64,000 nt of DNA. Origin: an uncultured Acidobacteriota bacterium (lineage in GTDB: Bacteria > Acidobacteriota > Vicinamibacteria > Vicinamibacterales > UBA2999). Position 1 is the stretch's first letter. The number at the start of each line of letters is the position of its first letter. Below, piece after piece: positions 4,191 to 46,648 of this stretch. Below the pieces are notes generated by a model. It was not told where the DNA came from. It saw only the letters and a program-made list of their open reading frames with translations, and made no database searches. The position numbers were made by a program, and so were the translations under genes. The stretch is from positions 257,551 through 321,550 of the forward strand of contig CAVZXA010000003.1 of assembly GCA_963779175.1 (NCBI GenBank). The letters run 5' to 3'.

Positions 4191-4298
4191 GGTGTCGCCT
4201 CGCCGTCAGCATACCCGTGCGAGCGTCGCCACCGACGAGGGCCGCCCACTGCTCCGGGACGAGTGGTGGTATCGCCGGGAGGGCGGGTCGATTGCGGC

Positions 4299-7282: not shown

Positions 7283-7296
7283 TCGGGGCAGGCCGA

Positions 7297-16127: not shown

Positions 16128-16151
16128 TTGTCACTCGACTTGTCGGTGGTC

Positions 16152-16226
16152 GGGTCAGACCCCATTCTTGACTGGGCCAGACTTCGCGGCGATTGGTCTG
16201 GTCCAGCCCAGAATGGGGTCTGACCC
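16152..16226. terminator. Long imperfect hairpin between convergent genes (candidate bidirectional terminator or REP-like element)
   Basis: The left arm gggtcagaccccattct... (16152-16182) pairs with the right arm ...agaatggggtctgaccc (16196-16226). The outer 17 bp are perfectly complementary. It lies between the phzF-like stop (16127) and the pdxH stop (16242). There is no clear U-tract. Confidence 0.45.
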
Positions 16227-16241
16227 CAGACCCCGTGACAG

Positions 16242-21528: not shown

Positions 21529-21617
21529 AGCGAGGGGGGCTTGGCGCGGTGTCGCGCGTGGTCCAGAATACCCGCGAATCGCCGCGCGCGCCGCCGCGGC
21601 CTCGAGGGACTGGAGCC

Positions 21618-23184: not shown

Positions 23185-23210
23185 TGTGCCGCCCCTCTCA
23201 AGGAGACCGT

Positions 23211-24008: not shown

Positions 24009-24166
24009 TGTCCCGGAGCCGAAGTTCGCTGACATGCTCCGGGCGGGGCATCCCGCCTCGCGGCGTTGCTCCTCCCTCGAATATTCTCGATATTCTCGGT
24101 CGTCGCGCCTGGCGATCCGGGCGCCGCGCCCGGATCATTTGTCACCGAACTTCGGCTCCGGGACAC
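24008..24166. mobile_element. MITE-like non-autonomous element, copy 2 (159 bp)
   Basis: The ends are gtgtcccggagccgaagttcgctgaca ... tgtcaccgaacttcggctccgggacac. The interior matches copy 1 (…catgctccgggcggggcatcccgc…ctcgaatattctcgatattctcggtcgtcgcgcctggcgatccgggcgccgcgcccggatcattt) but lacks the 42-bp segment. Confidence 0.8.
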
Positions 24167-24180
24167 CAACCGCGTACCGC

Positions 24181-24405
24181 CTACCGGCGGCGCAGCAGCA
24201 CCGCCGCCAGCGCCGCCAGGCCGCCGGCCAGCACCACGCCGCGCAGCACCCGGAAGAGGCTGAGCACCCAGGCGATTCCGAGACCGAGCGCCGGCCACTG
24301 CACCCACCAGTGGCCGGGTGAGGTCAGCAGGTTGATCACGAACAGGAACGCCAGGATGAGCGGCGCTTTCACGAGGAACTTCGCGGCCCGGAGCGTGTGC
24401 GTCAC
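24181..24405 (-). CDS. Small 2TM-domain membrane protein
   Basis: This is a 74-aa ORF with two hydrophobic helices: KAPLILAFLFVINLLTSPGHWWVQWPALGLGIAWVLSLF. Confidence 0.6.
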   Translation of the reverse strand: MTHTLRAAKFLVKAPLILAFLFVINLLTSPGHWWVQWPALGLGIAWVLSLFRVLRGVVLAGGLAALAAVLLRRR

Positions 24406-24537: not shown

Positions 24538-25162
24538 CTACCCCTTCAGCCGGTCGCCGAAGTACTTCTGCAGCTTGTCCACCTTGGGGGCGGCCACCGC
24601 CGCCACGTAGGGCTGGTGGGGGTTCCGCGCCGCGTAGTTCTGGTGGTAGGCCTCGGCAGGGTAGAAGGGCGCCGCCGGCTCGATGGTGGTGGCTATCGGC
24701 GCGGCGAACACCTTGGCGGCCGTCAGTTGCGCGACGTAGGCCTCGGCGACGGCGCGTTGCTCGGCGTCGACCGGGAAGATGGCCGAGCGGGTACTGGGTG
24801 CCGCGGTCGTTGCCCTGACGATTGAGCTGCGTCGGGTCGTGCGCGACGGCGAAGAACACTCGCAGCAACTGGCCGAACGAGATGACGTCGGGGGCGAAGG
24901 TGACGCGGATGGCTTCCGCATGGCCGGTCGTGCCCGAGCAGACCGCTTCGTAGTTGGCGGTCTCCGCGGCGCCGCCGATATAGCCGGAGACCACCGATGC
25001 CACCCCGTCGAGGGGCAGGATCACCGCTTCGGTGCACCAGAAGCAGCCGCCGGCCAGCACGGCCACCTGCGGCGCGGCCGACCCGGAGGCCACGTCGCGG
25101 TCGGGCGAGGGGAAGTTCGCGAGGTCTGCCACTCCGCCACCGAACAGGCTCGATATCTGCAT
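24538..25162 (-). pseudogene. msrA: Peptide-methionine (S)-S-oxide reductase MsrA, one frame break near 24790
   Basis: The N-terminal part MQISSLFGGG...AVLAGGCFWCTEAVILPLDGVASVVSGYIGG...GHAEAIRVTFAPDVISFGQLLRVFFAVAHDPTQLNRQGNDRGTQY lies in the frame of ORF 24005-25324. The C-terminal part ...RSAIFPVDAEQRAVAEAYV...PAEAYHQNYAARNPHQPY lies in ORF 24538-24921. Confidence 0.88.
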
Positions 25163-25351
25163 ACCAGTCACCACCCACAGGTTTGACGCCGGAGGCGTGC
25201 CGCGGTTCCCGAAACGACACATGACACTCGGAGACATCCCCAGACTACAAATGGCGTCCATCCGCCCGAGGGATTGCTGATTCGGCCGTATACTCAGCGT
25301 GTGTTGGTGTCTGGAATCAGACACTTAGCGCAGGTTGTGCCAGGTGCGCCC

Positions 25352-27843
25352 ATGAAACAGTTCGCGTTCGCCATCGCGATCACGTCCGTCGTCGGGGCCG
25401 GGCTCGCGGTCGCCGCCTTCGAGGGGCAGACGCCGCCGGCCTCGCCCACGCCGGCCGTCAGGTCCACGCCGCCGGCGCCCGCCGCCACGGCCCGTCGCTC
25501 CGCGCCGGTTGCCGCGCCGTCACATGCGTCCGGGCTGTCGGCCGTGTCGCAGACCGAACTCATCACGCAGTACTGCGGCACCTGCCACAGCGAACGCGGT
25601 AGGGCCGGCGGTCTGTCGCTTGCCAACTTCAACGCCATGAAGGCGCACGAGCAGCCCGAGACGGTCGAGAAGATGATCCGCAAGCTGCGCGCCGGCATGA
25701 TGCCGCCCGCCGGATCGAAGCGGCCGGATGCGGCCACCATCGAGGCCCTCACCCTGGCGCTCGAATCGCGGATGGACGAGGTGGCCGGGGTCAATCCGAA
25801 CCCGGGCTGGCGGCCGTTCCAGCGCCTGAATCGCGCCGAATACACCACGGCGGTGAAAGACCTGCTCGGCATCGACGTCGACGTCAGCGCGTTCCTGCCG
25901 GCCGACACCATCAGCGACGGCTTCGACAACGTGGCCGACGCCCAGGGCTTCTCGCCGACGCTGATGGAAGGCTATCTGCGCGCGGCCGGCCGCATCACCC
26001 AGCTGGCGCTCGGCGAGCCGACGGCGGCGCCGACCGAAGCCACCTACAAGGTGCCGCGCACGCAGTCGCAGATGGTGCACATCGAAGGCGCGCCGCTCGG
26101 CACCCGCGGCGGCGTCTCGCTGGTGCACGTGTTCCCGGCCGACGGCGACTACAGCTTCCGCGTGATGCTGCACTCGATTCCCACCGGCGAGCTCTACGGC
26201 AGCACCACCAAAGGCGAGCAGATCGAGATCTCGATCAACGGCGAGCGCGTGGCGGTGATGGACATCAACCCGCGATGAGCGAACGCGACCCCAACGGCAT
26301 GAACCTGGCGACGCCGCGGGTGCACGTCAAGGCCGGCCCGCAGCGCGTCTCGGCCGCGTTCCTGCGGCGCTTCGAGGCGCCGGTGGACGACCTGCTGGCG
26401 CCGCTCGATTACACGCTGGCCGACTCGCAGATCGGCAGCGGCTTCGGCGTCACCACCCTGCCGCACGTGCGCGACTTCAGCGTCAGCGGCCCGTTCGACG
26501 TCACCGGCGTTTCCGAGACCGTGAGCCGCAGGAAGGTCTTCACGTGCCGGCCGACCACGCTGGCCGAAGAAGTGCCGTGCGCGACCGAGATCCTGAAGCG
26601 GATGGCGTCGCAGGCGTACCGCGAGCCGGTCTCGACCGCCGATGTGCAGGGGCTGGTGGCGTTCTACGAGAAGGGCCGCAAGGGCGCGGACTTCGAGGCC
26701 GGCATCCAGATGGCGCTCAGGCCCTGCTGGCCAGCCCGCGCTTCCTGTTCCGTCTCGAGCAGCCGCCGGCGACCGCCCGGGTGGGGCAGACCTTCCAGGT
26801 CGCGGAACTCGATCTGGCGTCGCGCCTGTCGTTCTTCCTCTGGGGCACCGGGCCCGACGAGGAGCTCATCACGGCGGCGACCTCCGGCACCCTGCAAGAC
26901 CCCGGCCGGGATCGACAGGCAGGTGCGGCGGATGCTGGCCGACCCGCGCTCGGAGGCGCTGGCGACCCGCTTCGCTCGCAGTGGCTGCGCCTGCAGGACG
27001 TCGAGAAGATTCGCCCGGATGCGCTGCTCTATCCCAACTGGGACCACACGCTGGCCGAGACCCTCGTGCGCGAGACCGAGCTGTTCTTCGACAGCCTCGT
27101 CCGCGACGACCGCAGCATCCTCGACCTGCTGCGCGCCGACTACACCTTCGTGAACGAGCGCGTGGCGCGGCACTACGGCATCCCGAACGTGATGGGGGCC
27201 GAGTTCCGCCGCGTGCCGACGCCGGCGGGCCGCCGCGGCGTGCTCGGCCAGGGCAGCGTCCTGCTGCTGACCTCGGTGGCCGACCGCACCTCGCCGGTGC
27301 AGCGCGGCAAGTGGGTGATGGAAGTGCTGCTCGGCTCGCCGCCGCCGGCGCCGCCGCCCAACGTGCCGGCGCTCGAAGAGACCGGGGGCGCCAAGGGCGG
27401 CACGCCTGCTGTCGACGCGCGAGCGCATGGAACAGCACCGCGCGAACCCGGCATGCAAGTCGTGCCACAGGGTGATCGATCCGCTCGGCCTCGCGCTCGA
27501 GAACTTCGACGTCACCGGCGCCTGGCGCATCAAGGACAACGAAGTGCCGGTCGACGCGGTCGGCGACCTCTACGACGGCACGAAGATGAACGGCCCGATC
27601 GGGCTCGCGCGACGCGCTGCTGAAGCACAAGGACGTGTTCCTTCTGAGCTTCACCGAGAGCCTGATGACCTACGCGCCTCGGCCGCCGGATCGAGTCGTT
27701 CGACATGCCGGCGGTGCGCAAGATCATCCGCGACGCCGGCCGACAGGACACATCGCATCTCGGCGTTCGTGCTCGGCGTGGTGAACAGCCCGGCGTTCCG
27801 GATGAGCCGCGTCGAAGGCACGGACACGACAACGCGTCAGTAG
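25352..27843 (+). pseudogene. Module A: DUF1592/DUF1588/DUF1595 (PSD/PSCyt) family putative di-heme c-type protein, heavily frame-disrupted (>=8 breaks)
   Basis: It has the signal-like N-terminus MKQFAFAIAITSVVGAGLAVAAF and two CxxCH motifs: CGTCH at 25574-25588 and CKSCH at 27454-27468. It is collinear with intact copies C and D across ORFs 25274-26278, 26275-27153, 26544-27623 and 27427-27843. The first break is a missing g in ...aacccgcg|atgagc at about 26270, where copy D reads aacccgcggatggac. Confidence 0.8.
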
Positions 27844-27869
27844 GCGCAGTCAACGAAAGCCAGCATCTG

Positions 27870-29280
27870 ATGTTCATCACCCAGAAGCACCTCTCGCGCC
27901 GCACGGCTCTCAAGGGCCTCGGCGTCACCATGGCGCTGCCGCTCCTGGAGGCGATGGTGCCGGCGCGCACCGCGCTGGCGCAGACGGCTGCCGGCGGCAA
28001 GGTCCGCCTGGCCGCCATCGAGATGGTGCACGGCTCGGCCGGCGCCACCGTTCGGCCTGCAGAAGAACATGTGGTCGCCGGCGGCCGTCGGCACGCGACT
28101 TCGACCTGACGCCGACGCAGCCTGGCGCCGCTCGAGCCCTTCCGCGACGCCCTGACGATCGTCAGCAACACCGACGTCCGCAACGCCGAGGCGTTCGAGC
28201 TGCCGGAAATCGGCGGCGACCACTTCCGCTCGAGCGCGGTGTTCCTGACGCAGAGCGCATCCGAAGCAGACGCAGGGCTCGCGACGTGCTCGCCGGCACC
28301 TCGCTCGATCAGTTCTACGCGCAGAAGTTCGGCCAGGACACGCCGATTCCGTCGATGCAGCTGTGCATCGAGAACGTCGACCAGGCCGGCGGCTGCGCCT
28401 ACGGCTACTCCTGCGTCTACACCGACACGATCAGCTGGGCCTCGCCCAAAGAGCCGCTGCCGATGATTCGCGACCCGCGCGCCGCCTTCGATCAGCTGTT
28501 CGGCGTCGGCGCTACGCCGGCCGAGCGCGCCACCCGGCGCAGCGCGACAAGAGCATCCTCGACTTCATCACCGGCGAGGTCGCGCGGCTGCGCAAGGACC
28601 TCGGCCCGGCCGACCAGGCCCGCCTCGGCGAGTACCTCGACGACGTCCGCGAGATCGAGCGCCGCATCCAGAAGGTCGAAGCGTCGAACTCGAGCGGCGA
28701 GCCGCGCGAGCTGCCCGGCGCGCCGGTGGGCGTGCCCGACGCGTTCGACGAGCACGTCAAGCTGATGTTCGACCTGCAGGCGCTGGCGTTCGCCTCCGAC
28801 ATCACCCGCGTGTTCTCGTTCAAGATGGGCCGCGACGGCTCGAGCCGCGTCTATCCGGAAAGCGGCGTCAACGCCGGCTTCCACCCGGCGTCGCACCATC
28901 AGGACCGCGAAGAGCGCATCCGCGACTTCGCGAAGATCAACACGCTACCACGTCGCGCATGCTGCCGTACTTCCTCGACAAGCTGAAGAACACGCCCGAC
29001 GGCGAGCAGCACCCTGCTCGACAACACGCTGATCATCTACGGCTCGCCGATGGGCAACTCGAACGTGCACAACCACAAGCGCTGCCCGCTGTTCTTCGCC
29101 GGCCACGCCGGCGGCGCGCTGAAGGGCGGCCTGCACATCAAGGCCGCCGACGGCACGCCGATGGCGAACGCGATGCTCGGCGCCATGCACCTGCTCGGGC
29201 TGTCCGACGTGAAGACGTTCGGCGACAGCACGGGCGTGACGGATCTGAACGCGGCGCCCGAGGCGACCGCGGCCTTCTAG
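27870..29280 (+). pseudogene. Module A: Tat-signal DUF1552 (HxxSHH) family protein, frame-disrupted (>=6 breaks)
   Basis: The N-terminus is MFITQKHLSRRTALKGLGVTMALPLLEAMVP. Later pieces lie in ORFs 28286-28765, 28363-28986 (which contains FHPASHHQDRE) and 29050-29280 (MGNSNVHNHKRCPLFFAGHAGG). All are collinear with copy D. Confidence 0.8.
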
Positions 29281-29295
29281 CTCGGAGACACGGCG

Positions 29296-31064
29296 ATGCA
29301 GTTTCGACTGGAACAGTCCCTGATGCGTGGCGTCGCCCTGGTGGGTGCCGCCGTTCTGGTGCTTGCCGCGACGCTCGGCGCGCAGTCGGCGGCAGTCGCC
29401 GATGCGGCGATGGGCGGCGATCGCGCAGCGGTGAAGGCGCTGCTGAAGCAGGGCAGCGACGTCAACGCGGCCCAGGGCGACGGCATGACCGCGCTGCACT
29501 GGGCGGCGATGAACGGCGACGCCGAGCTGGCGCAGATGCTGGTCTTCGCCGGCGCCAACGTGAAGGCGACGACGCGGCTGGGCGGCTACACGCCGCTCAT
29601 CATCGCCGCCCGCAACGGCCACGCGCCGGTGGTGGAGGTGCTGCTCAAGGCCGGCGCCGACGCGAAGGCCGCCACCTCGACCGGCACCACGCCGCTGATG
29701 CTGGCCGCCGCCTCGGGCAGCGTCGAGGCCGTGAAGGCGCTGCTCGGCGGCGGCGCCGACGTCGAGGCGAAGGAACGTCGATGCAGCAGACGCCGCTGAT
29801 GTTCGCCGCGGCCAACAACCGCGTCGAGGTCATGAAGGCGCTGATCGCGGCCGGCGCCAACGTGAAGGCGACGTCGAAGGTCGTGAACATCTCGACGCTG
29901 ACCTCGCCGGAAGAGGAGTTCTTCGCGCAGCAGGCGGCCCAGCAGCGGCCCGCGGCCGCGCCCGGCACCGCGCCGGCACCCGGCGCCCCTGCCGCCGCGG
30001 CCGCGCCCGCCGGTGGCGGTGGCGGCCGGCGTGGTCCGCAGACCGGCAAGGCCGGCGTCGAACGCAACTACCGCTACAACGAGCTGGTCGGCTCGCAGGG
30101 CGGCATGACGCCGCTGCTCTTTGCCGTGCGCCAGGGCTCGATGGACGCCGTCAAGGCGCTGCTCGAGGCCGGCGCCGACGTCAACCAGGTGAGCGGCGGC
30201 GACAAGACCAGCCCGCTCGTGATCGCCATCGTCAACGGCCACTTCGATCTGGCGCTGCACCTGCTCGACAAGGGCGCCAACCCCAACACGGTCAGCGACA
30301 ACGGCGTGGCGCCGCTCTACGCCGTGCTGAACGTGCAGTGGGCGCCCAAGGCGCTCTATCCGCAGCCGCGGGCGTACCTGCAGCAGAAGACCACCTATCT
30401 CGACACGATGAAGGCGCTGCTCGACAAGGGCGCCGACCCGAACGCGCGCCTCAAGTGCAAGGTGTGGTACTCGGGCTACAACTTCGATCTGTCGGGCGTC
30501 GACGAGATCGGCGCCACGCGTTCTGGCGCGCCGCCTACGCCTGCGACGTCGAGGCGATGAAGATGCTGGTCGCGGCCGGCGCCGACCCCAACATCCCGAC
30601 CACCAAGCCGGCCGGGCGTCCGCGCGTCGGCGACGCCGGCGTCGCGTGAAGGCGGCGACACCTCCAATGCGCCGCCGCTGCCGGTGGGCGGCCCCGGCGT
30701 CACGCCGCTGCAGGCGGCGGCCGGCGTCGGCTACGGCGAGGGCTTCGCCGCCAACTCGCACCGCTATGCGCCGAGCGGCATGCTGGCCGCCGTGAAGTAC
30801 CTGGTCGAGGAGCTCGGCGCCGACGTCAACGCCGCCGACCACGAAGGCAACACCGCCCTGCACCAGGCGGCGGCGCGCGGCGACGTCGCGATGATCGTAT
30901 ACCTGGTGTCGAAGGGCGCCGATGTGACGCGCGTGAACCGCGAAGGGCAGACCACGGCCGACATGGCCAACGGCCCCGTGCAGCGCACGCAGCCGTATCC
31001 CGAGGCGCTCAAGCTGCTCGAGAAGCTCGGCTCGAAGAACAACCACAAGTGCGTGTCGTGCTAG
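29296..31064 (+). pseudogene. Module A: secreted ankyrin-repeat protein, three frame breaks (about 29775, 30517, 30640)
   Basis: The hydrophobic N-terminus is [25 protein letters not shown] repeats are visible (GDGMTALHWAAMNGDAELAQMLVFAGANV, GYTPLIIAARNGHAPVVEVLLKAGAD ...). The C-terminus is ...LLEKLGSKNNHKCVSC*. Confidence 0.8.
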
Positions 31065-31111
31065 ACGCCGCGGACGCGGCGGCACGACGGCGAAACGGCA
31101 GGCCACGAGTC

Positions 31112-33651
31112 ATGACGAGACGACGACTGACAGCAACAGCCGCCGGCGCCGCCGTGGCCCTGGCCCTGGGCCTCGCCGTGCGCGCCGAACAGGCGGCGAC
31201 GCCCACCGCGCCGGCCCCGGCCGAAGCCGCTGCCGCCCGGCCCGCTGTCAGCCGTCCGCGCCCGGCCGCCGCCCCGGCAGCGTCGCACACCCCTGGCGCC
31301 GTGCCGCTCACCGCGGCGGGGCAGACCGAGCTCGTGACGACGTATTGCGCTACCTGCCATAGCGAACGCGCCAAGGCCGGCGGGCTGTCGCTGGCCAACT
31401 TCACCGCCATGCGCGCCCAGGAACAGCCCGAGGTGGTCGAGAAGATCATCCGCAAGCTGCGCGCCGGCATGATGCCGCCGGCAGGCGCGAAGCGGCCCGA
31501 TGCCGCCACCATCGACGCGCTCACAGCGGCGCTCGAATCGCGCATGGACGAACACGCGGCGACCAATCCGAATCCCGGCTGGCGTCCGTTCCAGCGTCTG
31601 AACCGCGCCGAGTACACGCGCGCGGTCCGCGACCTGCTCGGCGATCGAGGTCGATGTCACCGCCTTCCTGCCGGCCGACACCATGAGCCACGGCTTCGAC
31701 AACGTCGCCGACGTGCAGGGCATGTCGCCGACGCTGATCGAAGGCTACATGCGCGCGGCCAGCCAGATCAGCCGGCTCGCCGTGGGCGACCGCGACGCCA
31801 CGCCGGCCGCCGCCACCTACAAGGTGCGGCCGCACGATGTCGCAGATGCGCCAGCTCGAAGGCGCGCCGATGGGCACCCGCGGCGGCATCGTCGTGACGC
31901 ACATCTTTCCGGCCGATGGCGACTACGTGATCGGCGTGAACCTGCACAACGAGCCGCTCGGCGGCCTCTACGGACGCTCGACGATGAGCGTCATGAGTCT
32001 CAAGGAAGAGATCGACGTGGCCATCGACGGCCAGCGCGTGGCGGTGATTGCGCTCAACGAGCGGATGAGCGAGTCGGACGCCGCCAACAGCCTCGATCCG
32101 AAGACCGCGCGCATCCACGTGACGGCCGGGCCGCACCGGGTGTCGGCGGCCTTCATCCAGCGCTTCGAAGCGCCGCTCGACGACCTGCTGGTGCCGACCG
32201 AGAACACGCTGGCCGATGTCAGCATGAGCTACGGCGTGACGCTGCTGCCGCACCTGCGCGACATGACGGTCAACGGGCCCTATGCGGTGACCGGCGTGTC
32301 GGATTCGGTGAGCCGCCGCCGCATCTTCACCTGCCGGCCGACCTCGGCGGCGGAAGAGCCGGGCTGCGCCGGCGAGATCATCGGGTCGATCGCCGGGCGG
32401 GCGTTTCGCGGCCCGGTACCGCAGGCCGACCTCGACACCCTGATGGGCTTCTACACCGACGGCCGGAAGAAGGGCGACTTCGAGCACGCCATCCGTTACA
32501 CGCTGCAGGCCATTCTCGCCAGCCCGCGCTTCGTGTTCCGGCTCGAGGAAGTGCCGACGACGATGCGCGCCGGCCAGCCATTCCGCCTGAACGATCAGGA
32601 TCTGGCCTCGCGGCTGTCGTTCTTCCTGTGGGGCACGGTGCCCGACGCCGACCTGCTCAAGGCCGCCGCCGCCGGTCATCTGCGCACGCCGGTGGCGCTG
32701 AAGAAGCAGGTCGAGCGGATGCTCGCCGACCCGCGCTCGGAATCGCTGGCGACGCGCTTTGCCGCGCAGTGGCTGCGCCTGCAGGACCTCGACAAGATCA
32801 TCCCCGACTACCTGCAGTATCCGCACTACGACGACACGCTGGCCCAGGGCCTGCGGCGCGAGACGGAACTGTTCGTCGACAGCCTGCTGCGCGACAACCG
32901 CAGCGTGCTCGACCTCATCGAGAGCGACTACACGTTCGTGAACGAGCGCGTGGCGATTCACTACGGCATCCCGAACGTGACGGGCAACGCCTTCCGCAAG
33001 GTCGCGGTGACCGACCCGAACCGGCGCGGCATCCTCGGCCACGGCAGCGTGCTGGCGCTCACCTCGATCGCCGACCGCACCTCGCCGGTGCTGCGCGGCA
33101 AGTGGATCATGGAAGTGCTGCTCGGTTCGCCGCCGCCGGCGCCGCCGCCGAACGTGCCGGCGCTCGACGACACCAAGGACACCAGGGGCGGCCGCACCCT
33201 GTCGGTGCGCGAGCGCATGGAACAGCACCGCGCCAACCCCTCCTGCATGTCGTGCCACAAGGTGATCGACCCGCTGGGCCTCGCGCTCGAGAACTTCGAC
33301 GTCACCGGCGCCTGGCGCATCAAGGACAACGAGGTCGGTGTCGACCCGGTGGGCGACCTCTACGACGGCACCCGGCTCGATGGACCGGCCGGCCTGCGGG
33401 CGGCGCTGCTGCGCCACAAGGACGCCGTGCTGCTGAGCTTCGCGGAGCACCTCATGACCTATGCGCTCGGACGCCGCGTCGAGCCCTACGACATGCCGGC
33501 CATCCGACAGATCATCCGCGAGGCGGCGGCCAACAACTACAAGGTGCAGACGTTCGTGCAGGGAATCGTGGCCAGCCAGGCCTTCAGAATGACCCGGATC
33601 GACGCGCCGGAGACCACAACGATGGCCCCGGCGGCCGTCGCGAGACACTGA
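31112..33651 (+). pseudogene. Module B: DUF1592/PSD-family putative di-heme protein, two frame breaks (about 31641, 31835)
   Basis: The N-terminus is MTRRRLTATAAGAAVALALGLAV. The two CxxCH motifs are YCATCHSERAKAGGLSLANF and NPSCMSCHKVIDPLGLALENFD. The pieces lie in ORFs 31049-31897, 31683-... and 31837-33651 and are collinear with copies C and D. Confidence 0.85.
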
Positions 33652-33728
33652 CGCAGGACCCGGTGGCCTTGGGGTCTGGCCCCAGAACGAATCGTCACGG
33701 GCCTGTCCCCGAGTTAGGATCTGACCAC

Positions 33729-35130
33729 ATGTTCATCACCCAGAAGCACTTGTCCCGGCGCGCGGCCCTGAAGGGTCTGGGCGTGACCGTGGCCCTGCCG
33801 TTCCTCGAGGCCATGGTGCCGGCGCGGACGGCGCTGGCGCAGACCGCCGCCGGCAAGGTGCGGCTGGCCTGCATCGAGATGGTGCACGGCTCGGCCGGCA
33901 GCACCGCCTTCGGGATCAAGCAGAACATGTGGGCGCCGGCGGCCGCCGGCAGGAGCTTCGACCTCACGCCGTCGGCCCTGCAGCCGCTCGAGCCGCTGCG
34001 CGACTACCTCACCATCATCAGCAACACCGACGTCAAGAACGCCGAGGCGTTCGAGCTGCCGGAAATCGGCGGCGATCACTTCCGCTCGAGCGCGGTGTTC
34101 CTGACCCAGCAGCACCCCAAGCAGACGCAGAGCTCCGACGTCCACGTCGGCACCTCGCTCGACCAGTACTACGCGCAGAAGTTCGGCCAGGACACGCCGA
34201 TCCCGTCGATGCAGTTCTGCATCGAAAACGTCGACGCGGCCGGCGGCTGCTCCTACGGCTACTCGTGCGTCTACACCGACACCATCAGCTGGTCGTCGCC
34301 GACCGACCCGATGCCGATGATTCGCGATCCGCGGGTGGCCTTCGACCAGCTCTTCGGCGTCGGCGCCACGCCGCGGGCGCGGGCCGAACGGCGCGCCGAA
34401 GACAAGAGCATCCTCGACTGGATCACGTCCGACGTCGCGCGACTGAAGAAGGACCTCGGCGCCGCCGACCAGGCGCGGCTGGGCGACTATCTCGACGACG
34501 TCCGCGAGATCGAGCGGCGCATCCAGAAGACCGAGTCGTTCAACAGCAGCGGCGAACAGCGCGAGCTGCCCGGCGCCCCGGTGGGCGTGCCCGACTCGTT
34601 CGAAGAGCACATCAAGCTGATGTTCGACCTGCAGGCGATCGCGTTTGCCAGCGACATCACCCGCGTCTTCTCGTTCAAGCTGGGCCGCGACGCCAGCAAC
34701 CGCGTCTTCGCCGACAGCGGCGTGAAGACCGGCGTTCCACTCGGCGTCACACCATCAGGACCGCGACGATCGGATCCGCGACTTCCAGAAAATCAACCAC
34801 TACCACATCGGGATGATTCCCTACTTCCTGAACAAGTTGAAGGCGACGCCCGACGGCGAACGCAACCTGCTCGACAACACACTGGTGCTCTACGGCTCGC
34901 CGATGGGCAACTCGAACGTCCACAACCACAAGCGCTGCCCGCTGTTCCTGGCCGGGCACGCCGGCGGGGCGCTGAAGGGCAACATGCACATCAAGGCGGC
35001 CGACGGCACGCCGATGGCCAACGCCATGCTGAGCGTGCTGCACACGCTCGGCCTGAACGACTTCACGTCGTTTGGCGACAGCACCGCTGCGATGGACCTG
35101 AACTCGGCGCCGGCGCCGACCGCTATTTAG
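33729..35130 (+). pseudogene. Module B: Tat-signal DUF1552 (HxxSHH) protein, one frame break near 34735
   Basis: MFITQKHLSRRAALKGLGVTVALPFLEAMVP... is read in the frame of ORF 31683-35270 up to ...ADSGVKTG. The gene then continues in the frame of ORF 34813-35130 (FHSASHHQDRDDRIRDFQKINHYHIGMIPYFLNKLK..., read by me from 34737 on). Confidence 0.85.
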
Positions 35131-35242
35131 GCGGGTCTCGGGTCCCGGGGCTCGGGATCGCCCTTCGCGACATTCGGCATCACCGGTGGCACTCGGGCCG
35201 CCGCGCACGACGGAACGACGAACGCGGACGGAGAGGACACGC

Positions 35243-37780
35243 ATGCAGCGGAGCGCGACAGCGGTCCTGACGGCCGCGACGATAGGGCTGACACTCGCAG
35301 GACTTGCTGCCGCAGGCGACCGCGCCCCGCAGGCGTCCACGGCTGCGCGGCCGGCCGCATCTGCTGCCCGCACGCCCACCGCGCCCGCCGCTCCGCGATC
35401 CACCGCACCCGCACGGCGCGCGGGGGTGCCGGCCAGACCCGCCACGCACGCGCTCAGCCCGGCCGCGCAGACGGAGCTGGTGGCCACCTACTGCGCTACC
35501 TGCCACAGCGAACGCGCGAAAGCGGGCGGGCTGTCGCTGGCGGGCTTCAACGCCATGCGGGCGCAGGAGCAGCCCGAGGTGACCGAGAAGATCGTGCGCA
35601 AGCTGCGCGCCGGCATGATGCCGCCGGCCGGGGCGAAGCGTCCGCCGGCCGGCGCCCTCGAGGATCTCACCGGCGCTCTCGAAGCGCGGATGGATGAACA
35701 CGCCGCCGCCAACCCCAATCCCGGCTGGCGTCCGTTCCAGCGTCTGAACCGGGCCGAATATGCGCGCGCGGTCAACGACCTGCTCGGCGTGACGCTGGAT
35801 GTGGCGCCGCTGCTGCCGCCCGACACCATCAGCCACGGCTTCGACAACGTGGCCGACGCCCAGGGCTTCTCACCGGCGCTGCTCGAAGGCTACCTGCGGG
35901 CGGCCAGCCGCGTGACGGCGCTGGCGGTCGGGGATCCCGATAGTGCGGCCGGCGAATCCACCTACTCGCTGCCCAAGACCGCCTCGCAGCTGTCGCGGGC
36001 CGAGGGCGCGCCGCTCGGCACTCGCGGCGGCGTCTCGGTGATGCACACCTTTCCGGCCGACGGCGACTACACCTTCCGCATGGATTTCTTCGCCGAGCCG
36101 CTCGGCATGCTGTTCGGCAACACCGCCACCGGCGAGCAGATCGAGGTCTCGATCAACGGCGAACGCGTCGCCATCTTCGACATCGATCCGCGGATGAACG
36201 AGACCACCTCGAGCCTGTCGCTCAAGACCGCGCCGGTGCACGTGCAGGCCGGCCCGCAGCGGGTGACGGCGGCCTTCCTGCAGCGCTTCGAAGGTCCGGT
36301 CAACGATCTGGTGGCGCCGATCGATCACACGATGGCCGACACCGAAATCGGCATCGCCGTCGGCATCACCACGCTGCCGCACCTGCGTAACCTCGCGGTG
36401 GTCGGGCCGCACGCGGTCACCGGCGTCTCCGACACGGCGAGCCGGCGGAAGATCTTCACCTGCCGGCCCACCAGCGGCGGCGACGAGGCGGCCTGCGCCG
36501 ATGCGATCATCCGCGGCCTGGCCACCCGGGCCTTTCGGCGGGCGCCGAGCGAGCGCGAATTCACGCGTCTGCTGCGCTTCTACGAGAGCGGTCGCCGCGG
36601 CGAATCGTTCGAGCGCGGCGTGACCAAGGCGGTCGAGGCCATTCTGGCCAGCCCGCAGTTCCTGTTCCGCCTCGAGGACACGCCGGCGACGGCCCGTCCC
36701 GGTCAACCGTATCGCCTGGCCGATGTCGAACTGGCGTCGCGTCTGTCGTACTTCGTGTGGGGCGCCGCTCCGGACGAGCCGCTGCAGCAGCTCGCCTCGC
36801 AGAATCGCCTCAGCGCCCCCGGCGCCATCGAGGCCCAGGTCACGCGCCTGCTGGCGGACCCGCGCGCCGACGCGCTCTCGACCCGCTTCGCCTCGCAGTG
36901 GCTGCGTCTCCAGGACCTCGACGACGTCTCGCCCGACCCGATTCTCTATCCCTACTACGACCGCACGCTGGCGCAGGCGCTGCAGACCGAGACCGAACTC
37001 TTCGTCGCCAGCCTGGTGCGCGAGAACCGCAGCGTGCTCGACCTGCTCACCGCCGACTACACCTTCGTGAACGAGCGGGTGGCGCGCCACTACGGCATCG
37101 GCGGCGTCACCGGCTCGCAGTTCCGGCGGGTGGCGCTGCCGGCCGAGCGCCGCGGCGTGCTCGGCCACGCCAGCGTGCTGACGCTCACCTCGATCGCCGA
37201 CCGCACCTCGCCGGTGCAGCGCGGCAAGTGGATCATGGAGGTGCTGCTCGGCTCGCCACCCCCGGCGCCGCCGCCCAACGTGCCCGCGCTCGAAGACACC
37301 AAGGGCACGAGCGACGGCAAGGTGCTGTCGGTGCGCGAGCGCATGGAGACGCACCGGAAGAACCCGGCGTGCATGTCGTGCCACAAGGTGATCGACCCGC
37401 TCGGCCTGGCGCTCGAGCACTTCGACGCCACCGGACGCTACCGCATCAAAGACGCCGGCGTGCCGGTGGATGCGGTCGGCGACCTCTACGACGGCACGAA
37501 GATGGCTGGCGCCGACGGGCTGCGCGGCGCCCTCATGAAGCACAAGGACGCGTTCCTGCTCAGCTTCACCGAGCACCTCATGACCTACGCGCTCGGGCGC
37601 CGCGTCGAGGCCTCGGACATGCCGGCCGTGCGAGCGGTGATCCGCGCCGCGTCGCGCCAGAACTACCGCATCTCGGCGTTCGTGCAGGGCGTGGTCGCAA
37701 GCGACCCGTTCCAGAAGAGCATCATTCGGACCGCCGCGCCGACAGATCACGGAAGAAGCGCGGCGAGACGTAGCGGCTAG
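35243..37780 (+). CDS. Module C: DUF1592/PSD-family putative di-heme c-type protein (intact)
   Basis: The ATG at 35243 is preceded by ggagagg. The product begins MQRSATAVLTAATIGLTLAGLAAAG. The two CxxCH motifs are YCATCHSERAKAGGLSLAGF and NPACMSCHKVIDPLGLALEHFD. The ORF is uninterrupted to 37780. Confidence 0.88.
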   Translation: MQRSATAVLTAATIGLTLAGLAAAGDRAPQASTAARPAASAARTPTAPAAPRSTAPARRAGVPARPATHALSPAAQTELVATYCATCHSERAKAGGLSLAGFNAMRAQEQPEVTEKIVRKLRAGMMPPAGAKRPPAGALEDLTGALEARMDEHAAANPNPGWRPFQRLNRAEYARAVNDLLGVTLDVAPLLPPDTISHGFDNVADAQGFSPALLEGYLRAASRVTALAVGDPDSAAGESTYSLPKTASQLSRAEGAPLGTRGGVSVMHTFPADGDYTFRMDFFAEPLGMLFGNTATGEQIEVSINGERVAIFDIDPRMNETTSSLSLKTAPVHVQAGPQRVTAAFLQRFEGPVNDLVAPIDHTMADTEIGIAVGITTLPHLRNLAVVGPHAVTGVSDTASRRKIFTCRPTSGGDEAACADAIIRGLATRAFRRAPSEREFTRLLRFYESGRRGESFERGVTKAVEAILASPQFLFRLEDTPATARPGQPYRLADVELASRLSYFVWGAAPDEPLQQLASQNRLSAPGAIEAQVTRLLADPRADALSTRFASQWLRLQDLDDVSPDPILYPYYDRTLAQALQTETELFVASLVRENRSVLDLLTADYTFVNERVARHYGIGGVTGSQFRRVALPAERRGVLGHASVLTLTSIADRTSPVQRGKWIMEVLLGSPPPAPPPNVPALEDTKGTSDGKVLSVRERMETHRKNPACMSCHKVIDPLGLALEHFDATGRYRIKDAGVPVDAVGDLYDGTKMAGADGLRGALMKHKDAFLLSFTEHLMTYALGRRVEASDMPAVRAVIRAASRQNYRISAFVQGVVASDPFQKSIIRTAAPTDHGRSAARRSG

Positions 37781-37800
37781 GGCCTAACGGCTGGCGGCTA
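37771..37800. repeat. Short GCGGCTAG-type intergenic repeat (single arm)
   Basis: The sequence tagcggctagggcctaacggctggcggcta lies across the module C DUF1592 stop codon (37778-37780) and the first 20 nt after it. It is related to the strings at 43483, 62942 and 63058. Confidence 0.5.
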
Positions 37801-37831
37801 AACGAGACCACGGTTCAGGGATATCGAGCTC

Positions 37832-39246
37832 ATGGCAACCTTCTCTCGACACAGAAGCATCTCTCGCGGCGCGCGGCCCTCAGGGGCATCGGGGCCACCG
37901 TGGCCCTGCCGTTCCTCGACGCGATGCTGCCGGCCTCCACCGCCTACGCGAAGGTGGCCGACCGCAAGGTGCGCCTCATCGCGCTCGAGATGGTGCATGG
38001 CGCGGCGGGCAGCACCACCTACGGCGCGAAGCTGAACCTGTGGGCGCCGGCGGCGACCGGCAGCGGCTTCGACCTCGCGCCCACGGCGATGGCGGCGCTC
38101 GAGCCCTACCGCGACTACCTGACGATTGTCAGCAACACCGACTGCCGCAATGCCGAGGCGTTCAGCGCGCCGGAAATCGGCGCCGACCACTTCCGCTCGG
38201 CGGCGGTGTTCCTCACGCAGGCCAAGCCGAAGCAGACGCAGGGCTCGGACGTCTTCGCCGGCACCTCGTTCGATCAGATCGTGGCCAGGCAACACGGGCA
38301 GGAGACGCCGATTCCGTCGATGCAGCTCTGCATCGAGAACGTCGACCAGGCGGGCGGCTGCTCCTACAACTACTCGTGCGTCTACACCGACACCATCAGC
38401 TGGGCCTCGCCCACCGAGCCGCTGCCGATGATCCGCGATCCGCGCTCGGTCTTCGATCAGCTGTTCGGCGTGGGCACCACGCCCGAGGCGCGGCGCTCGC
38501 GCCGCAAGGACGACCGCAGCATCCTCGACTTCGTCGCCGAGTCCGTCGGCGACCTGAAAGGACGGCTGGGCGCCGCCGATCGCGCCCGCCTCACCGAATA
38601 CCTCGACGACGTGCGCGAGATCGAGCGCCGCATCCAGAAGGTCGAGGGCCAGAACTCGAGCGGCGACGCCCGCGAACTGCCCGGCGCGCCGATCGGCGTG
38701 CCCGACTCGTGGGAAGAACACGTCAAGCTGATGTTCGACCTGCAGGTGGTGGCGTTTGCCAGCGACGTCACGCGCAACTTCGCCTTCAAGCTGAGTCGCG
38801 ACGTGAGCAACCGGGTGTTCGGGCCCACCAGTTCCCAGACGGCGTTCCATACCGCGTCGCACCACCAGGAACGCGAAGACCGCATCAAGGACTTCCAGAA
38901 AATCAACGTCTATCACGTGAGCCTCATCCCGTATCTGCTGGGCAAGCTCAAGGCGACCCCCGACGGCGACGGCAACCTGCTCGACAACAGCCTCGTCGTC
39001 TACGGCTCGGCGATGGGCAACTCGAACATGCACAACCACAAGCGCTGCCCGCTGTTCTTCGCCGGGCATGCTGGTGGACGCCTCAAGGGCAACCTGCACA
39101 TCAAGGCGGCCGACGGCACGCCGATGGCCAACGCGATGCTGCCGGCACTGCAGGCACTCGGCGTCGACCTGGCGAGCTTTGGCGACAGCACTGGTGCGCT
39201 CGATCTGAACCGCGCCGTCGACACGACGGCGGCGGTGGAGGCGTAG
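37832..39246 (+). pseudogene. Module C: Tat-signal DUF1552 (HxxSHH) protein. It is intact except for a probable 1-nt indel within the first roughly 15 nt
   Basis: The body is in-frame from 37846 (STQKHLSRRAALRGIGATVALPFLDAMLP...FHTASHHQERED...HNHKRCPLFFAGHAGG). The only ATG (37832) is in the +1 frame, and there is no in-frame start back to the TAG at 37771. Confidence 0.8.
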
Positions 39247-39250
39247 CGCG

Positions 39251-40978
39251 ATGCCACGACGCGTGCACGGGGGCGTTGCCCTCCTGGTGACGCTGGCGGC
39301 GTGCGGCGCCTGGCTGCAGGCGGCGGCGCCCGATCCCGGACGAAGCGCGGTGGCCGACGCGGCCATGCGCAAAGACGTCGAGGCGGTGCGCGCGCTGGTG
39401 CGGCAGGGTGGCGACGTCAACGCGGCGCAGGGCGACGGCATGACCGCGCTGCACTGGGCCGCGACCCATGGCGACGCGCCGCTGACCGAGATCCTGCTCT
39501 ATGCCGGCGCCAACGTGAAGGCGACCAGCCGTCTCGGACGCTACACGCCGCTCCACGTCGCCAGCCAGGGAGGCGCCGCGGCGGTGGTCACGGCGCTGCT
39601 GGCACGCGGCGCCGAGGCCGATGCGACCACCACCACCGGCGCGACGGCGCTGATGTTCGCGGCGCAGGCCGGCCACGTGCCGACCGTCACGGCGCTGCTC
39701 GATGCCAAAGCCGACGTGAACGCGACGGAGCAGGCGCACGGCCAGACCGCGCTCATGTTCGCGGCCACGGCCGATCGCGCCGACGTCGTCACGCTGCTGG
39801 TCAGCCGCGGCGCCAGAACGGACGTGACGTCGAAGGTCGTCGATCTCGCGGCGCTCACCCAGGGCGACGGCGAAGGGCGGCCACCCGAGCCGCAGACCGG
39901 CGGACAGGATCAGGCCCGCGGCGGCGGACCGGCAGCGGCGCCGGCCCGGCCCGGCGCCGCGTCCCACCGACGTGGCCGGCGCCACGCGGCCCTATCGCTA
40001 CAACGAGCTCATCGGCGCGCAGGGCGGGCTGTCGGCGCTGCACTTCGCCGCGCGTCAGGGCGCGTTCGCCGCCGCCCGCGCCGTCGTCGAGCGCGGTGGC
40101 AACGTCAACCTGAAGAGTCCCGGTGACGGCACGACGCCGCTGCTCATCGCGACGCTGAACGGCCACTTCGATCTGGCGCGGTATCTGGTCGAACACGGCG
40201 CCGATCCCAACCTCACGAGCCGCGCCGGCGCGGCGCCGCTGTATGCGGTGCTCAACGTGCAGTGGGCGCCCAAGGCCGCCTATCCGCAGCCGCGCGCCTA
40301 CCTGCAGCAGCGCACCGGCTACCTCGAGCTGATGACGCTGCTCCTCGACAAGGGCGCCGATCCGAACGCACGCCTGACGCGCAAGGTCTGGTACTCGGGC
40401 TACAACTTCGACCAGTCGGGCGTCGACGAGATCGGCGCCACGCCGTTCTGGCGCGCCGCCTACGCCAGCGACGTCACGGCGATGCGCCTGCTGGTGGCGC
40501 GCGGTGCCGACCCGCACATTCCGAGTGTGCGGCCGGCCGAGCGCACGCGCGGCCTCGATGGCGTCGGCGAGCTGCGCGACGTCTCGGCCCTGCCCGCCGT
40601 GCCGGTGGGCGGCCCCGGCATCCCGGTGCTGCACGCCGTGGCCGGCGTCGGCTACGGGAAGGGCTTCGCCGGCAACTCGCACGTGTTCGCGCCGACCGGC
40701 ATGATGGCCGCCGTGACCTACCTGGTCGAGGAACTGGGCGTGGACGTCAACGCCATCGACTACGAAGGCAACACGGTCGTGCACCATGCGGCCTCGCGCG
40801 GCGACACCGAGATGATCAAGTACCTGGTGGCGAAGGGGGCTGATGTCACCCGCGTGAACCGCGCCGGCCAGACCACCATCGACCTGGCGAATGGCCCGGT
40901 GCAGCGCGTGCAGCCGTTCCCCGAGACCATCGCCTACCTCGCGTCGCTCGGTGCGAAGAACAACCACAAGTGCGTCTC

Positions 40979-40985
<7 letters not shown>
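39251..40985 (+). pseudogene. Module C: secreted ankyrin-repeat protein, one frame break near 39965
   Basis: The N-terminus is MPRRVHGGVALLVTLAACGAW (signal/lipobox-like). ANK repeats lie in ORF 39251-40126. The gene continues in ORF 39972-40985 (...YRYNELIGAQGGLSALHFAARQGAF...). The C-terminus is ...LGAKNNHKCVSC*. Confidence 0.85.
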
Positions 40986-43482
<2,497 letters not shown>

Positions 43483-43483
<1 letters not shown>

Positions 43484-43515
43484 CGGCTAGCGGCTGGGGA
43501 CTAGCGGCTGAGATC
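43483..43515. repeat. Short GCGGCTAG-type intergenic repeat (three tandem half-units)
   Basis: The sequence tagcggctagcggctggggactagcggctgag lies immediately after the module D DUF1592 stop. Confidence 0.5.
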
Positions 43516-43536
43516 TCGCGACCGGAGCAGACAACG

Positions 43537-44940
43537 ATGTTCATCTCGCAGAAACACCTCTCTCGGCGCACCATGCTTCGCGGCGTCGGTGCCACCGTGG
43601 CTCTGCCGTTCCTCGAGGCGATGGTGCCGGCACGTACCGCCTACGCGAAGAGCGCGGCGGCCGGGAAGGTGCGCTTTGCCGCCATCGAGATGGTGCATGG
43701 CTCGGCCGGCGCCACCGTGGTCGGCACCGCGAAGCACATGTGGTCACCGGCCGCGACCGGGCGGGCGTTCGATCTCGGCCCCACCTCCATGCGCGCGCTC
43801 GAGCCCTTCCGCGACCACCTGACCATCATCAGCAACACCGACGTCCGTAATGCCGAGGCGTTCGAACTGCCAGAAATCGGCGGCGACCACTTCCGCTCGA
43901 GCGCGGTGTTCCTCACCCAGGCCCACCCCCGCCAGACGCAGGGCTCGGACGTGCGCGCCGGCACCTCGATCGATCAGCACTACGCGCAGAAGTACGGGCA
44001 GGAGACGCCGATTCCGTCGATGCAGCTGTGCATCGAGAACGTCGACCAGGCCGGCGGCTGCTCCTACGGCTACTCCTGCGTCTACACCGACACCATCAGC
44101 TGGGCCTCGGCCGAAGAGCCGCTGCCGATGATCCGCGACCCGCGCGTGGCCTTCGATCAGCTGTTCGGCGTCGGCGCCACGGCCGAAGAGCGGGCGGTGC
44201 GGCGCAAGGAAGACAAGAGCATCCTCGACTGGGTCACCACCGAGATCGCGCGGCTGCAGAAGACGCTGGGCCCGGTCGACCGCGCCCGGCTCACCGACTA
44301 CCTCGACGACATCCGCGAGATCGAGCGGCGCATCCGCAAGGTCGAGACCCTCAACAGCAGCGGCGAGCAGCGGGCGCTGCCGGGCGCGCCGATCGGCGTG
44401 CCGGACAGCTTCGGCGAACACGTGAAGCTGATGTTCGACCTCCAGGCGGTGGCGTTTGCGAGCGACCTCACGCGGGTGTTCTCGTTCAAGATGGGCCGCG
44501 ATGCCTCCGGCCGCGTCTATCCCGAGAGCGGCGTCACGACCGGCTTCCATCCGGCCTCGCACCACCAGGGCCGCGAAGACCGGGTGACGGAGTTTGCGAA
44601 GATCAACGCCTATCACGTCAGCCTGATTCCGTATTTCCTCGACAAGCTGAAGAACACGCCCGAAGGCGACGGCACGCTGCTCGACCAGACGCTCGTGATG
44701 TACGGCTCGCCGATGGGCGATTCGAACGTGCACAACCACAAGCGGTGCCCGCTCTTCCTCGCCGGACATGCCGGCGGGCAACTGCGGGGCCAGACGCACA
44801 TCAAGGCGGCCGATGGCACGCCGATGGCCAACGCGATGCTGTCGGTGGGACAGCTGCTCGGGCTGGATCTGCCGTCGTTCGGCGACAGCACCGCGGCCAT
44901 GGACCTGAACGCCGCGGTCGAGACCACGGCGGCGAAGTAG
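43537..44940 (+). CDS. Module D: Tat-signal DUF1552 (HxxSHH) family protein (intact)
   Basis: The ATG at 43537 is preceded by ggag at 43524-43527. The twin-arginine leader is MFISQKHLSRRTMLRGVGATVALPFLEAMVP. The HxxSHH motif HPASHH is at 44548-44565. HNHKRCPLFLAGHAGG lies near the C-terminus. Confidence 0.9.
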   Translation: MFISQKHLSRRTMLRGVGATVALPFLEAMVPARTAYAKSAAAGKVRFAAIEMVHGSAGATVVGTAKHMWSPAATGRAFDLGPTSMRALEPFRDHLTIISNTDVRNAEAFELPEIGGDHFRSSAVFLTQAHPRQTQGSDVRAGTSIDQHYAQKYGQETPIPSMQLCIENVDQAGGCSYGYSCVYTDTISWASAEEPLPMIRDPRVAFDQLFGVGATAEERAVRRKEDKSILDWVTTEIARLQKTLGPVDRARLTDYLDDIREIERRIRKVETLNSSGEQRALPGAPIGVPDSFGEHVKLMFDLQAVAFASDLTRVFSFKMGRDASGRVYPESGVTTGFHPASHHQGREDRVTEFAKINAYHVSLIPYFLDKLKNTPEGDGTLLDQTLVMYGSPMGDSNVHNHKRCPLFLAGHAGGQLRGQTHIKAADGTPMANAMLSVGQLLGLDLPSFGDSTAAMDLNAAVETTAAK

Positions 44941-44950
44941 GCGACCGATC

Positions 44951-46648
44951 ATGACGATGCGACGACTGGCTGGAACCTGGGTGACCGCGGGTCTCGTGGT
45001 CGGACTCGTGTCGATGACTGGGGCCGGCGTGGAGGGCCGCCGCCGCACGATCGCCGATGCCCCCGTGGCTGATGCCGTGATGCGCGGCGACACCGCCGGC
45101 GTGCGTGCGATGCTGCGCGCCGGTGCCGACGTGAACGCGGCGCAGGGCGACGGCATGACCCCGCTGCACTGGGCGGCGATGAAGGGTCAGGCCGAGATCG
45201 CCTCGATACTGCTCTATGCCGGTGGCAGCCACGCGGCCACCACCCGCCTCGGCGGCTACACGCCGCTCCACCTGGCCGCCCGGGCCGGCAGCGCGCCGAT
45301 CGTGGACGCGCTGGTCGCCGCCGGCGCCAACGTCAAGGCCACGACCTCGTCTGGTGCGACCGCGCTGATGCTGGCGGCCGAGTCGGGCACGCTCGCCGCG
45401 GTGCGCCGCCTCGTGTCTGCCGGCGCCGACGTCAACGCGGTGGAGCAGGCCAAAGGCCAGTCGGCGCTGATGTTCGCCGCCGCCTTCGACCGCGCGGATG
45501 TCGTGGCGTTCCTGCTGGCGCAGGGGGCCGACCACCGGCGCGCCACCACGGTCGTGGATCTGGCGACGCTCACCGCCTCCACCGAACCGGCGGCGCCGCG
45601 GCGGCCGGGCACGGCTGCGGCGAACGCGCCGCAGATTGCCGGCCTGACCCGCCAGTTCCGCTACAACGAGCTCATCGGCACGCAAGGCGGTCTCACAGCG
45701 CTGCTCTTTGCCACCCGCGAAGGCTACGCGGCGTCGGCGACGGCGCTGCTGGCCGGTGGCGCCGACGTCAATCAGGTGAACCCCGGCGATGGCACGAGCC
45801 CGCTGCTCATGGCGGTCATCAACGGCCACTTCGACCTCGCCATGCAGTACCTGGCCAAGGGAGCGGACGTGTCGCGCACCGCGGCCAACGGCGCGGCGCC
45901 GCTCTACGCCACGCTCAACCATCGCTGGGCGCCGAAGTCGCAGTATCCCAATCCGAAGGGCTATCAGCAGCAGACGACGTCGTACCTGCAGATGATGCAG
46001 GCGCTCCTCGACCAGGGCGCCGACCCCAATGCGCGCATCCGGAAGAAGGTCTGGTATCAGGCGTTCAACTCCGACTTCGCCGGGGTGGACGAGATCGGCG
46101 CCACGCCGTTCTGGCGCGCCGCCTACGCCAGCGATGTCGAGGCGATGCGGCTGCTCGTGAAATACGGCGCTGATCCCCACATTCCGACGGTGAAACCGGC
46201 CGGACGCCCCTTCACCGGCGACGGCATCCGCCAGACCACGGATGTCTCGAACATCCCGCCGGTGCCGGTGGGCGGGCCGGCCGTGCCGCCGCTGCTGGCG
46301 GCGTCCGGTGTGGGCTACGGCGAGGGCTTCGCCGCCAACTCGCATCGCTACGCCGAGACCGGCTTCCTGCCTGCCATCAAGTACCTGGTCGAAGAGGTCG
46401 GGGCGGACGTGAACGCGGTGGACCACGAAGGCAACACGGCCGTGCATCTGGCTGCCTCGCGCGGCGACAACGCCTCGATCGAATACCTGGTCTCGAAGGG
46501 CGCCGTCGTCACGACCGTGAACCGCGAGGGTCAGACCACCGCGGACATGGCCAACGGCCCGGTGCAGCGCACGCAGCCCTACCCGGCGACGATTGCGCTG
46601 CTCGAGAAGCTCGGCGCGACCAACAACCACAAGTGCGTGTCGTGCTGA
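44951..46648 (+). CDS. Module D: secreted ankyrin-repeat protein (intact, 565 aa)
   Basis: The hydrophobic N-terminus is LAGTWVTAGLVVGLVSMTGAG. There are several ANK repeats in the N-terminal third, a Pro/Ala linker, and more ANK-like repeats after it. The C-terminus is ...LLEKLGATNNHKCVSC*. Confidence 0.9.
   Translation: MTMRRLAGTWVTAGLVVGLVSMTGAGVEGRRRTIADAPVADAVMRGDTAGVRAMLRAGADVNAAQGDGMTPLHWAAMKGQAEIASILLYAGGSHAATTRLGGYTPLHLAARAGSAPIVDALVAAGANVKATTSSGATALMLAAESGTLAAVRRLVSAGADVNAVEQAKGQSALMFAAAFDRADVVAFLLAQGADHRRATTVVDLATLTASTEPAAPRRPGTAAANAPQIAGLTRQFRYNELIGTQGGLTALLFATREGYAASATALLAGGADVNQVNPGDGTSPLLMAVINGHFDLAMQYLAKGADVSRTAANGAAPLYATLNHRWAPKSQYPNPKGYQQQTTSYLQMMQALLDQGADPNARIRKKVWYQAFNSDFAGVDEIGATPFWRAAYASDVEAMRLLVKYGADPHIPTVKPAGRPFTGDGIRQTTDVSNIPPVPVGGPAVPPLLAASGVGYGEGFAANSHRYAETGFLPAIKYLVEEVGADVNAVDHEGNTAVHLAASRGDNASIEYLVSKGAVVTTVNREGQTTADMANGPVQRTQPYPATIALLEKLGATNNHKCVSC

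Follow-up and report, generated by a model that had tools for sequence, protein, structure and literature searches.

Frame breaks in an acidobacterial array of PSD-cytochrome/DUF1552 modules very probably reflect patchy consensus errors

Introduction

Gene pairs in which a protein with PSCyt3 and PSD domains is combined with a DUF1552 protein were first noted in Planctomycetes and Verrucomicrobia. PSCyt3 genes usually adjoin a family of unknown genes, and nothing is known about their function (PMC5615132). Here, we analyzed a window of 64,000 nucleotides (nt), that is, the whole stretch of contig CAVZXA010000003.1 under study, with a G+C content of ca. 70% and assigned to an uncultured Acidobacteriota bacterium. 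It carries four tandem modules (A to D) on the plus strand between 25.35 and 46.65 kb. Each module contains a P gene, encoding a DUF1592/PSD cytochrome-c protein of 820 to 850 residues with PSD3, PSD5, PSD4, PSCyt3 and PSD2 domains and a cytochrome-c motif (Pfam, all above the gathering score). Directly downstream on the same strand lies a T gene, in all four modules and also in relatives, encoding a DUF1552/HXXSHH protein of ca. 467 residues (PF07586, E = 5.6e-85) with a twin-arginine leader (MFI[ST]QKHLSRR...). Judged by this domain set (PSD2 to PSD5, PSCyt3 and cytochrome c) and the DUF1552/HXXSHH neighbor immediately downstream, the modules belong to the same gene-pair class. In contrast to the pairs of Planctomycetes and Verrucomicrobia, they are found in a Vicinamibacterales-like member of the Acidobacteriota and occur as a conserved tandem array with three to four paralogous modules, most of which include, as a third member, a gene encoding a secreted ankyrin-repeat protein (A protein, 555 to 590 residues; Pfam) ending in NNHKCVSC.

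Modules A to C of this array are interrupted by frameshifts, and two known situations resemble this picture. When paralogues decay into pseudogenes, some tandem copies carry multiple frameshifts while another copy is intact. In case of long-read (Nanopore or PacBio) indel errors, single-base indels split open reading frames (ORFs) whose coding sequence is otherwise normal, at a density that depends on local support. At least one report describes gene-fragmenting indels in long-read assemblies as a problem (PMC12007338). We conclude that the frame breaks are very probably patchy consensus errors lying over an intact conserved array and not the decay of redundant copies. Taken at face value, the distribution of breaks from A to D would make a textbook series of paralogue decay with module D singled out as the functional copy, and both conclusions would be wrong.

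Results and discussion

Frameshifts were located with a protein-to-DNA dynamic-programming aligner that allows shifts of ±1 and ±2 nt, using the intact module D proteins and orthologues from a related metagenome-assembled genome (MAG) as references. This yielded 20 frameshifts for module A (8 in the P gene, 9 in the T gene and 3 in the ankyrin gene), 3 for module B, 2 for module C and none for module D, with zero in-frame stops. The original prediction, made from the sequence alone, had counted at least 8, at least 6 and 3 breaks in the three genes of A, two in P and one in T of module B, none in P, one in the first codons of T and one in the ankyrin gene of module C, and an intact D, and all of these counts are borne out by the aligner. 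Both sets of references gave matching frameshift sites, the module A counts held across frameshift penalties from 18 to 30, and the same frame switches were seen in a reference-free Viterbi segmentation based on G+C content at third codon positions (GC3). Too many compensating +1/-1 pairs were called when nucleotides were simply aligned under lax gap costs, and this approach was replaced by codon-aware alignment together with a stricter alignment to a 93%-identical relative.

Module boundaries as placed by tblastn agree with the original prediction. In module A, P_A (25352-27840) carries eight single-base frameshifts, three deletions and five insertions (26267, 26719, 26895, 26977, 27402, 27610, 27677 and 27750), and its first 915 nt are free of events. 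Nine frameshifts, or eight at higher penalty, interrupt T_A (27870-29280; events at 28050, 28087, 28118, 28257, 28282, 28538, 28945, 28958 and 29010), again with no in-frame stop, and three interrupt the ankyrin gene A_A (29296-31064; 29776, 30519 and 30644), each of them a clean 1-nt difference from a 93%-identical relative. P_B (31100-33651) has two single-base insertions, a G at 31643 and a C at 31827, and T_B (33729-35130) has one near 34731. No ankyrin gene follows T_B, and the spacer between T_B and P_C is 112 nt, both as predicted. P_C (35243-37780) is an uninterrupted ORF with an ambiguous compensated pair in its low-complexity N-terminus only. Two extra bases at 37843-37847, inside the first five codons of T_C (37832-39246), leave its ATG out of frame with the gene body, and A_C (39251-40985) shows one +1 event near 39948 in a linker rich in Ala, Pro and Gly. 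Module D (40970-46648) is made up of P_D (40970-43483), T_D (43537-44940) and A_D (44951-46648), all intact.

The lesions are all 1 to 2 nt long, mostly +1, and lie within otherwise conserved flanks. A location in homopolymers was rejected: none were found at the indel sites, and very few runs of five or more exist in the window. Likewise, at the second g proposed to be missing near 26270 the orthologue has a T. Slippery heptamers and repeats were also absent from the indel sites. The number of events differs strongly among modules (chi-square p = 5e-8), so the unevenness behind the predicted 5'-to-3' gradient is real. Its stepwise form per module is not, since event density follows a peak at ca. 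26.9-29 kb with tails.

The same type of lesion extends well beyond the array. Aligning the proteins of MAG GCA_963851895.1, a syntenic relative, to the window, or stitching the frames suggested by GC3 and scanning the product with Pfam, showed that 1- to 2-nt lesions break at least eight unrelated genes. In total, the window and probably the whole assembly carry ca. one gene-breaking indel per kb, amounting to roughly 50-60 frame breaks in the window. These occur in patches, with hot patches at 16.4-18.1, 26.2-30.7 and 60.2-62.9 kb and an event-free stretch of ca. 11 kb at 40-51.4 kb, inside which module D is located. Patch edges lie within genes, as seen for a 929-residue gene in the first hot patch and for the clean first part of P_A. 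The argument that random sequencing error should not produce a gradient over adjacent paralogues therefore fails, because error density is patchy at the kilobase scale in this window.

To provide a control, the same frame-aware aligner was run on the orthologous arrays of relatives. Among Nanopore-only MFD MAGs, 7, 5, 20, 1 and 0 frameshifts were found (loci L010, L013, L015, L018 and L028, respectively), mostly +1, stop-free in well-covered genes and scattered over different modules. The short-read MAGs aligned (L012, L017, L026 and L029) had 0 frameshifts in eight genes each. Further, in the long-read MAG L001 the ankyrin gene of module A is one base short compared with an Illumina contig of 99% identity that carries the complete gene, and the L001/L002 pair agrees with this pattern. 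The MFD MAGs stem from Flye assemblies that went through one round of Medaka and no polishing with short reads, and for those of lower coverage the authors report errors associated with Nanopore sequencing (PMC12313526). Taken together, the lesions are small indels without signs of lost function, occur independently of gene identity, and are absent from accurate assemblies of relatives while present in error-prone ones.

Based on these results, the frame breaks would be single-base insertions, and less often deletions, of an error-prone assembly. The source is most likely a long-read MAG that was inadequately polished, the platform being presumed. Errors would occur at ca. one per kb across the window and be concentrated in kilobase-scale patches of poor consensus support, presumably caused by low depth or strain heterogeneity. 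One such patch would peak at ca. 27-29 kb and tail off towards 40 kb, and an apparent gradient from A to D would arise because four homologous modules stand side by side under its right-hand tail. All four modules would then be intact and belong to an old, conserved tandem array of predicted periplasmic proteins. As a practical consequence, gene calls, pseudogene counts and selection analyses on this assembly need frame-aware correction or re-polishing.

The array itself is well conserved. Searching GTDB representative genomes with T_B gave 77 loci, and the order A (P-T-ankyrin), B (P-T) and C (P-T-ankyrin) is kept in at least 15 Acidobacteriota/Vicinamibacterales MAGs, followed by D (P-T-ankyrin) where the locus extends and D is present (array loci L001, L003, L007-L018, L026, L028 and L029). 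MAG GCA_963851895.1 contains an intact T_A orthologue of 93% identity on a contig that shares the upstream genes and all four modules with the window, and P_A orthologues are intact and 88-89% identical. The best matches in protein collections were 93% identical for T_A, 89% for P_A and 98% for T_B. Exact look-ups of the A_D and T_D proteins gave no entry in the collections searched, and a 70-mer of the window had no exact match among GTDB representative genomes. Since orthologues are 77-98% identical while paralogues within a genome reach 55-79%, the duplications are old. Module B is never accompanied by an ankyrin gene in related arrays, and going by this shared gene order its missing ankyrin gene is ancestral and not a product of decay. 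What is biologically real at this locus is of modest interest: in Acidobacteriota, three or four PSD-cytochrome/DUF1552 modules are arranged in a conserved tandem array, and three of these modules also encode a secreted ankyrin protein.

Progressive pseudogenization, in which A and then B and C would be redundant copies under neutral decay with D as the working copy, was one of two explanations initially put forward for the frame breaks. It would account for the disabling nature of the lesions (20, 3 and 2 frameshifts in A, B and C) and for the strong difference in density by module. However, modules A to C are intact in every short-read relative aligned, with ratios of nonsynonymous to synonymous substitution rates (dN/dS) of 0.06-0.2, whereas frameshifts occur in the Nanopore-only MAGs, and D is the very module missing at its position in five arrays (L012, L013, L015, L017 and L028). 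For these reasons, comparative sequence data indicate that A to C are not dispensable copies and that D is not the only functional one. The lesions also reach beyond redundant genes, and decay would imply that ca. one quarter of the genes in the window are decaying. They are clustered inside genes and not distributed over dead genes. In bacterial pseudogenes, indels are biased towards deletions and vary widely in size, whereas the lesions observed here are insertion-biased and never longer than 2 nt, and no larger deletion was found in the modules.

Selection analyses point in the same direction. After frame correction, dN/dS relative to the related array was 0.205 for P_A, 0.170 for T_A and 0.160 for A_A, far below 1, though above the values of 0.056-0.144 for modules B to D. 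Restricting the analysis of module A to sites more than 30 nt from any frameshift gave 0.14-0.21. In Tajima's relative-rate test, for which short-read MAGs served as outgroup, window-specific and relative-specific substitutions were equal in every module (chi-square below 1.2 for A). T_A has 7 private residues in all when compared with 74 orthologues, 3 of them at columns conserved to at least 95%, while 12 comparable orthologues have 3-15. P_A has 19 (38 orthologues) compared with ca. 10 in comparable sequences. The heme and catalytic motifs CxxCH and HxxSHH are retained in the frame-corrected proteins. The frame-corrected genes of module A are under purifying selection and show no rate acceleration, and with private-residue counts near normal and no nonsense codon they do not show the relaxed selection expected of decaying paralogues.

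The substitution spectrum of module A is also at odds with decay. Window-specific transitions and transversions numbered 21:53 in A compared with 63:45 in B and C (p = 8e-5), GC-to-AT changes made up 24% in A compared with 56% in B and C (p = 2e-5), and G↔C and A↔T changes were in excess in A. In a GC-rich genome, GC-to-AT transitions should accumulate under neutral decay, as a result of bacterial mutational bias. The spectrum of A is opposite to this expectation because such transitions are scarce in a genome of 70% G+C. We infer that consensus errors of the substitution or paired-indel type would show up as such an excess of G↔C mismatches in a gapless codon alignment.

Several observations weigh against consensus error as the explanation and, in part, favor decay. 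On the window branch of module A, substitutions fall more often on codon positions 1 and 2 (109/256 vs 59/260, p = 1.5e-6). This excess (26000-31000 of the window) co-localizes with the indel peak, while modules B to D are symmetric and the total rate is not raised. It probably results from substitution-type or paired-indel consensus errors, but it may also fit some slight relaxation of constraint, or recombination. Likewise, dN/dS in module A is roughly double the value of the other modules, and for the T genes it is 0.14-0.17 in T_A and ca. 0.06 in T_B, T_C and T_D. According to our calculation, the absence of stop codons discriminates only weakly between the explanations unless substitutions outnumber indels by at least 5-10:1. 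The indels were compared with references that are 87-93% identical in DNA and not of the same strain. In the short-read (MEGAHIT) MAG L016, one frame split is found in the ankyrin gene of module A (positions 3-1021), so not every split in relatives can be attributed to long reads. Finally, the residual errors usually described for Nanopore data concern homopolymer length, whereas those in the window, whose platform is presumed, are insertion-rich and outside homopolymers and thus not of the textbook Nanopore kind, a spectrum that is shared by the sister Nanopore MAGs. With these points taken into account, we consider decay of redundant copies highly unlikely.

Alternatively, the indels could be real without representing ordinary decay, as the outcome of a recent, indel-dominated and insertion-biased inactivation that acted in kilobase patches, dismantling module A and sparing D. 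If true, this would imply an unusual local mutational process. We regard this possibility as slightly less probable than decay.

The second explanation initially put forward was a failure of assembly or consensus polishing caused by cross-mapping of reads among near-identical paralogous tracts. An artifact is indeed what our results point to, but this particular cause is a still poorer candidate than real inactivation. Repeat-induced mis-polishing is a known failure mode, and the densest stretch of this finding does lie in a four-fold repeated gene set. The paralogous modules, however, are not near-identical. Their DNA identity is 72-79% and the longest exact word in common is 57 nt, which is too divergent for cross-mapping of short reads or of long reads with an accuracy of at least 90%. 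Cross-mapping should further result in paralogue-like substitutions and not in isolated 1-nt insertions, and in alignments of the sites the erroneous bases do not match the paralogues. Single-copy genes at 16.4-18.1 kb and the barrel gene at 60.2-62.9 kb contain patches of equal density, and module D is equally paralogous yet clean.

Biological use of the frameshifts, through programmed ribosomal frameshifting or phase variation, has nothing in its favor beyond the presence of frameshifts and practically no chance of being correct, given that slippery heptamers, repeats and homopolymers are lacking at the sites, up to nine sites per gene fall at non-conserved positions and the orthologues are single-frame.

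Array proteins

The ankyrin proteins of modules A, C and D all end in ...NNHKCVSC (encoded at 31040-31064, 40961-40985 and 46624-46648), and all of these paralogues have a signal-like segment at the N-terminus. The NNHKCVSC terminus could be a candidate metal- or cofactor-binding site or a processing site. Searches of PDB sequences returned no relatives of solved structure for P_D or T_D, and an AlphaFold2 model of T_D built from a shallow alignment was of low confidence (predicted local distance difference test, pLDDT, of 50) and too poor for use. In addition, a protein of 747 residues in ENA (P0056) combines PSD2, HXXSHH and ankyrin domains in a single chain. It is probably a frameshift fusion of neighboring genes in another assembly. 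If so, artifacts of this kind have entered protein databases.

Other features of the window

The first hot patch covers two unrelated single-copy genes at 16245-19700 (minus strand), a PNPOx-like gene with three insertions and the 929-residue hypothetical gene. The latter has 6-19 insertions, which are confined to 16992-18095 and leave 18096-19700 unaffected, so that 1.6 kb of clean sequence adjoins 1.1 kb of dense lesions. The count depends on the penalty, falling from 19 to 11 to 6 as the penalty rises, and tblastn shows at least five frame changes. The MsrA gene (24544-25261, minus strand) has one +1 insertion at 24790. A MacB/FtsX-type permease gene (1846-4197, minus strand) lies in three frames with junctions near 3049 and 4020, which are crossed by the Pfam matches to MacB_PCD and FtsX. 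Similarly, a peptidase S58 gene (6124-7297, minus strand) lies in three frames with junctions near 6344 and 6707, and one Pfam match covering profile positions 1-306 of 307 spans both. A malate-synthase-like gene (50242-52111, minus strand) is split near 51488 and a class-V aminotransferase gene (55597-56758, minus strand) near 56476, with a TIM-barrel match and a Pfam match, respectively, spanning the junction. Aligned to the proteins of the relative, a PhzF gene, a 595-residue gene and a 2TM gene were clean.

The third hot patch corresponds to a gene for a TonB-dependent-type outer-membrane barrel (60234-62901, plus strand), which is split in at least six places. A match to OMP_b-brl_4 (profile positions 265-828) spans four of the junctions and the N-terminal part of the protein spans another. 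Over this gene, at 60000-62000 of the window, the G+C content falls to 0.66.

Three copies of the palindrome GGGGTCWGRCCCC lie in two intergenic spacers (16151-16163, 16215-16227 and 33671-33683), where chance alone would give 0.58. Both spacers exceed their counterparts in L001 by 70-130 nt, and in L006 the spacer between P_B and T_B contains an additional, related piece. The palindrome may be a small element resembling repetitive extragenic palindromes (REP) or miniature inverted-repeat transposable elements (MITE). Further, 21585-24184 represents an insertion of ca. 2.6 kb relative to the syntenic L001, with three ORFs on the plus strand that encode an S9-peptidase-like, a PDZ-domain and a TPR-repeat protein.

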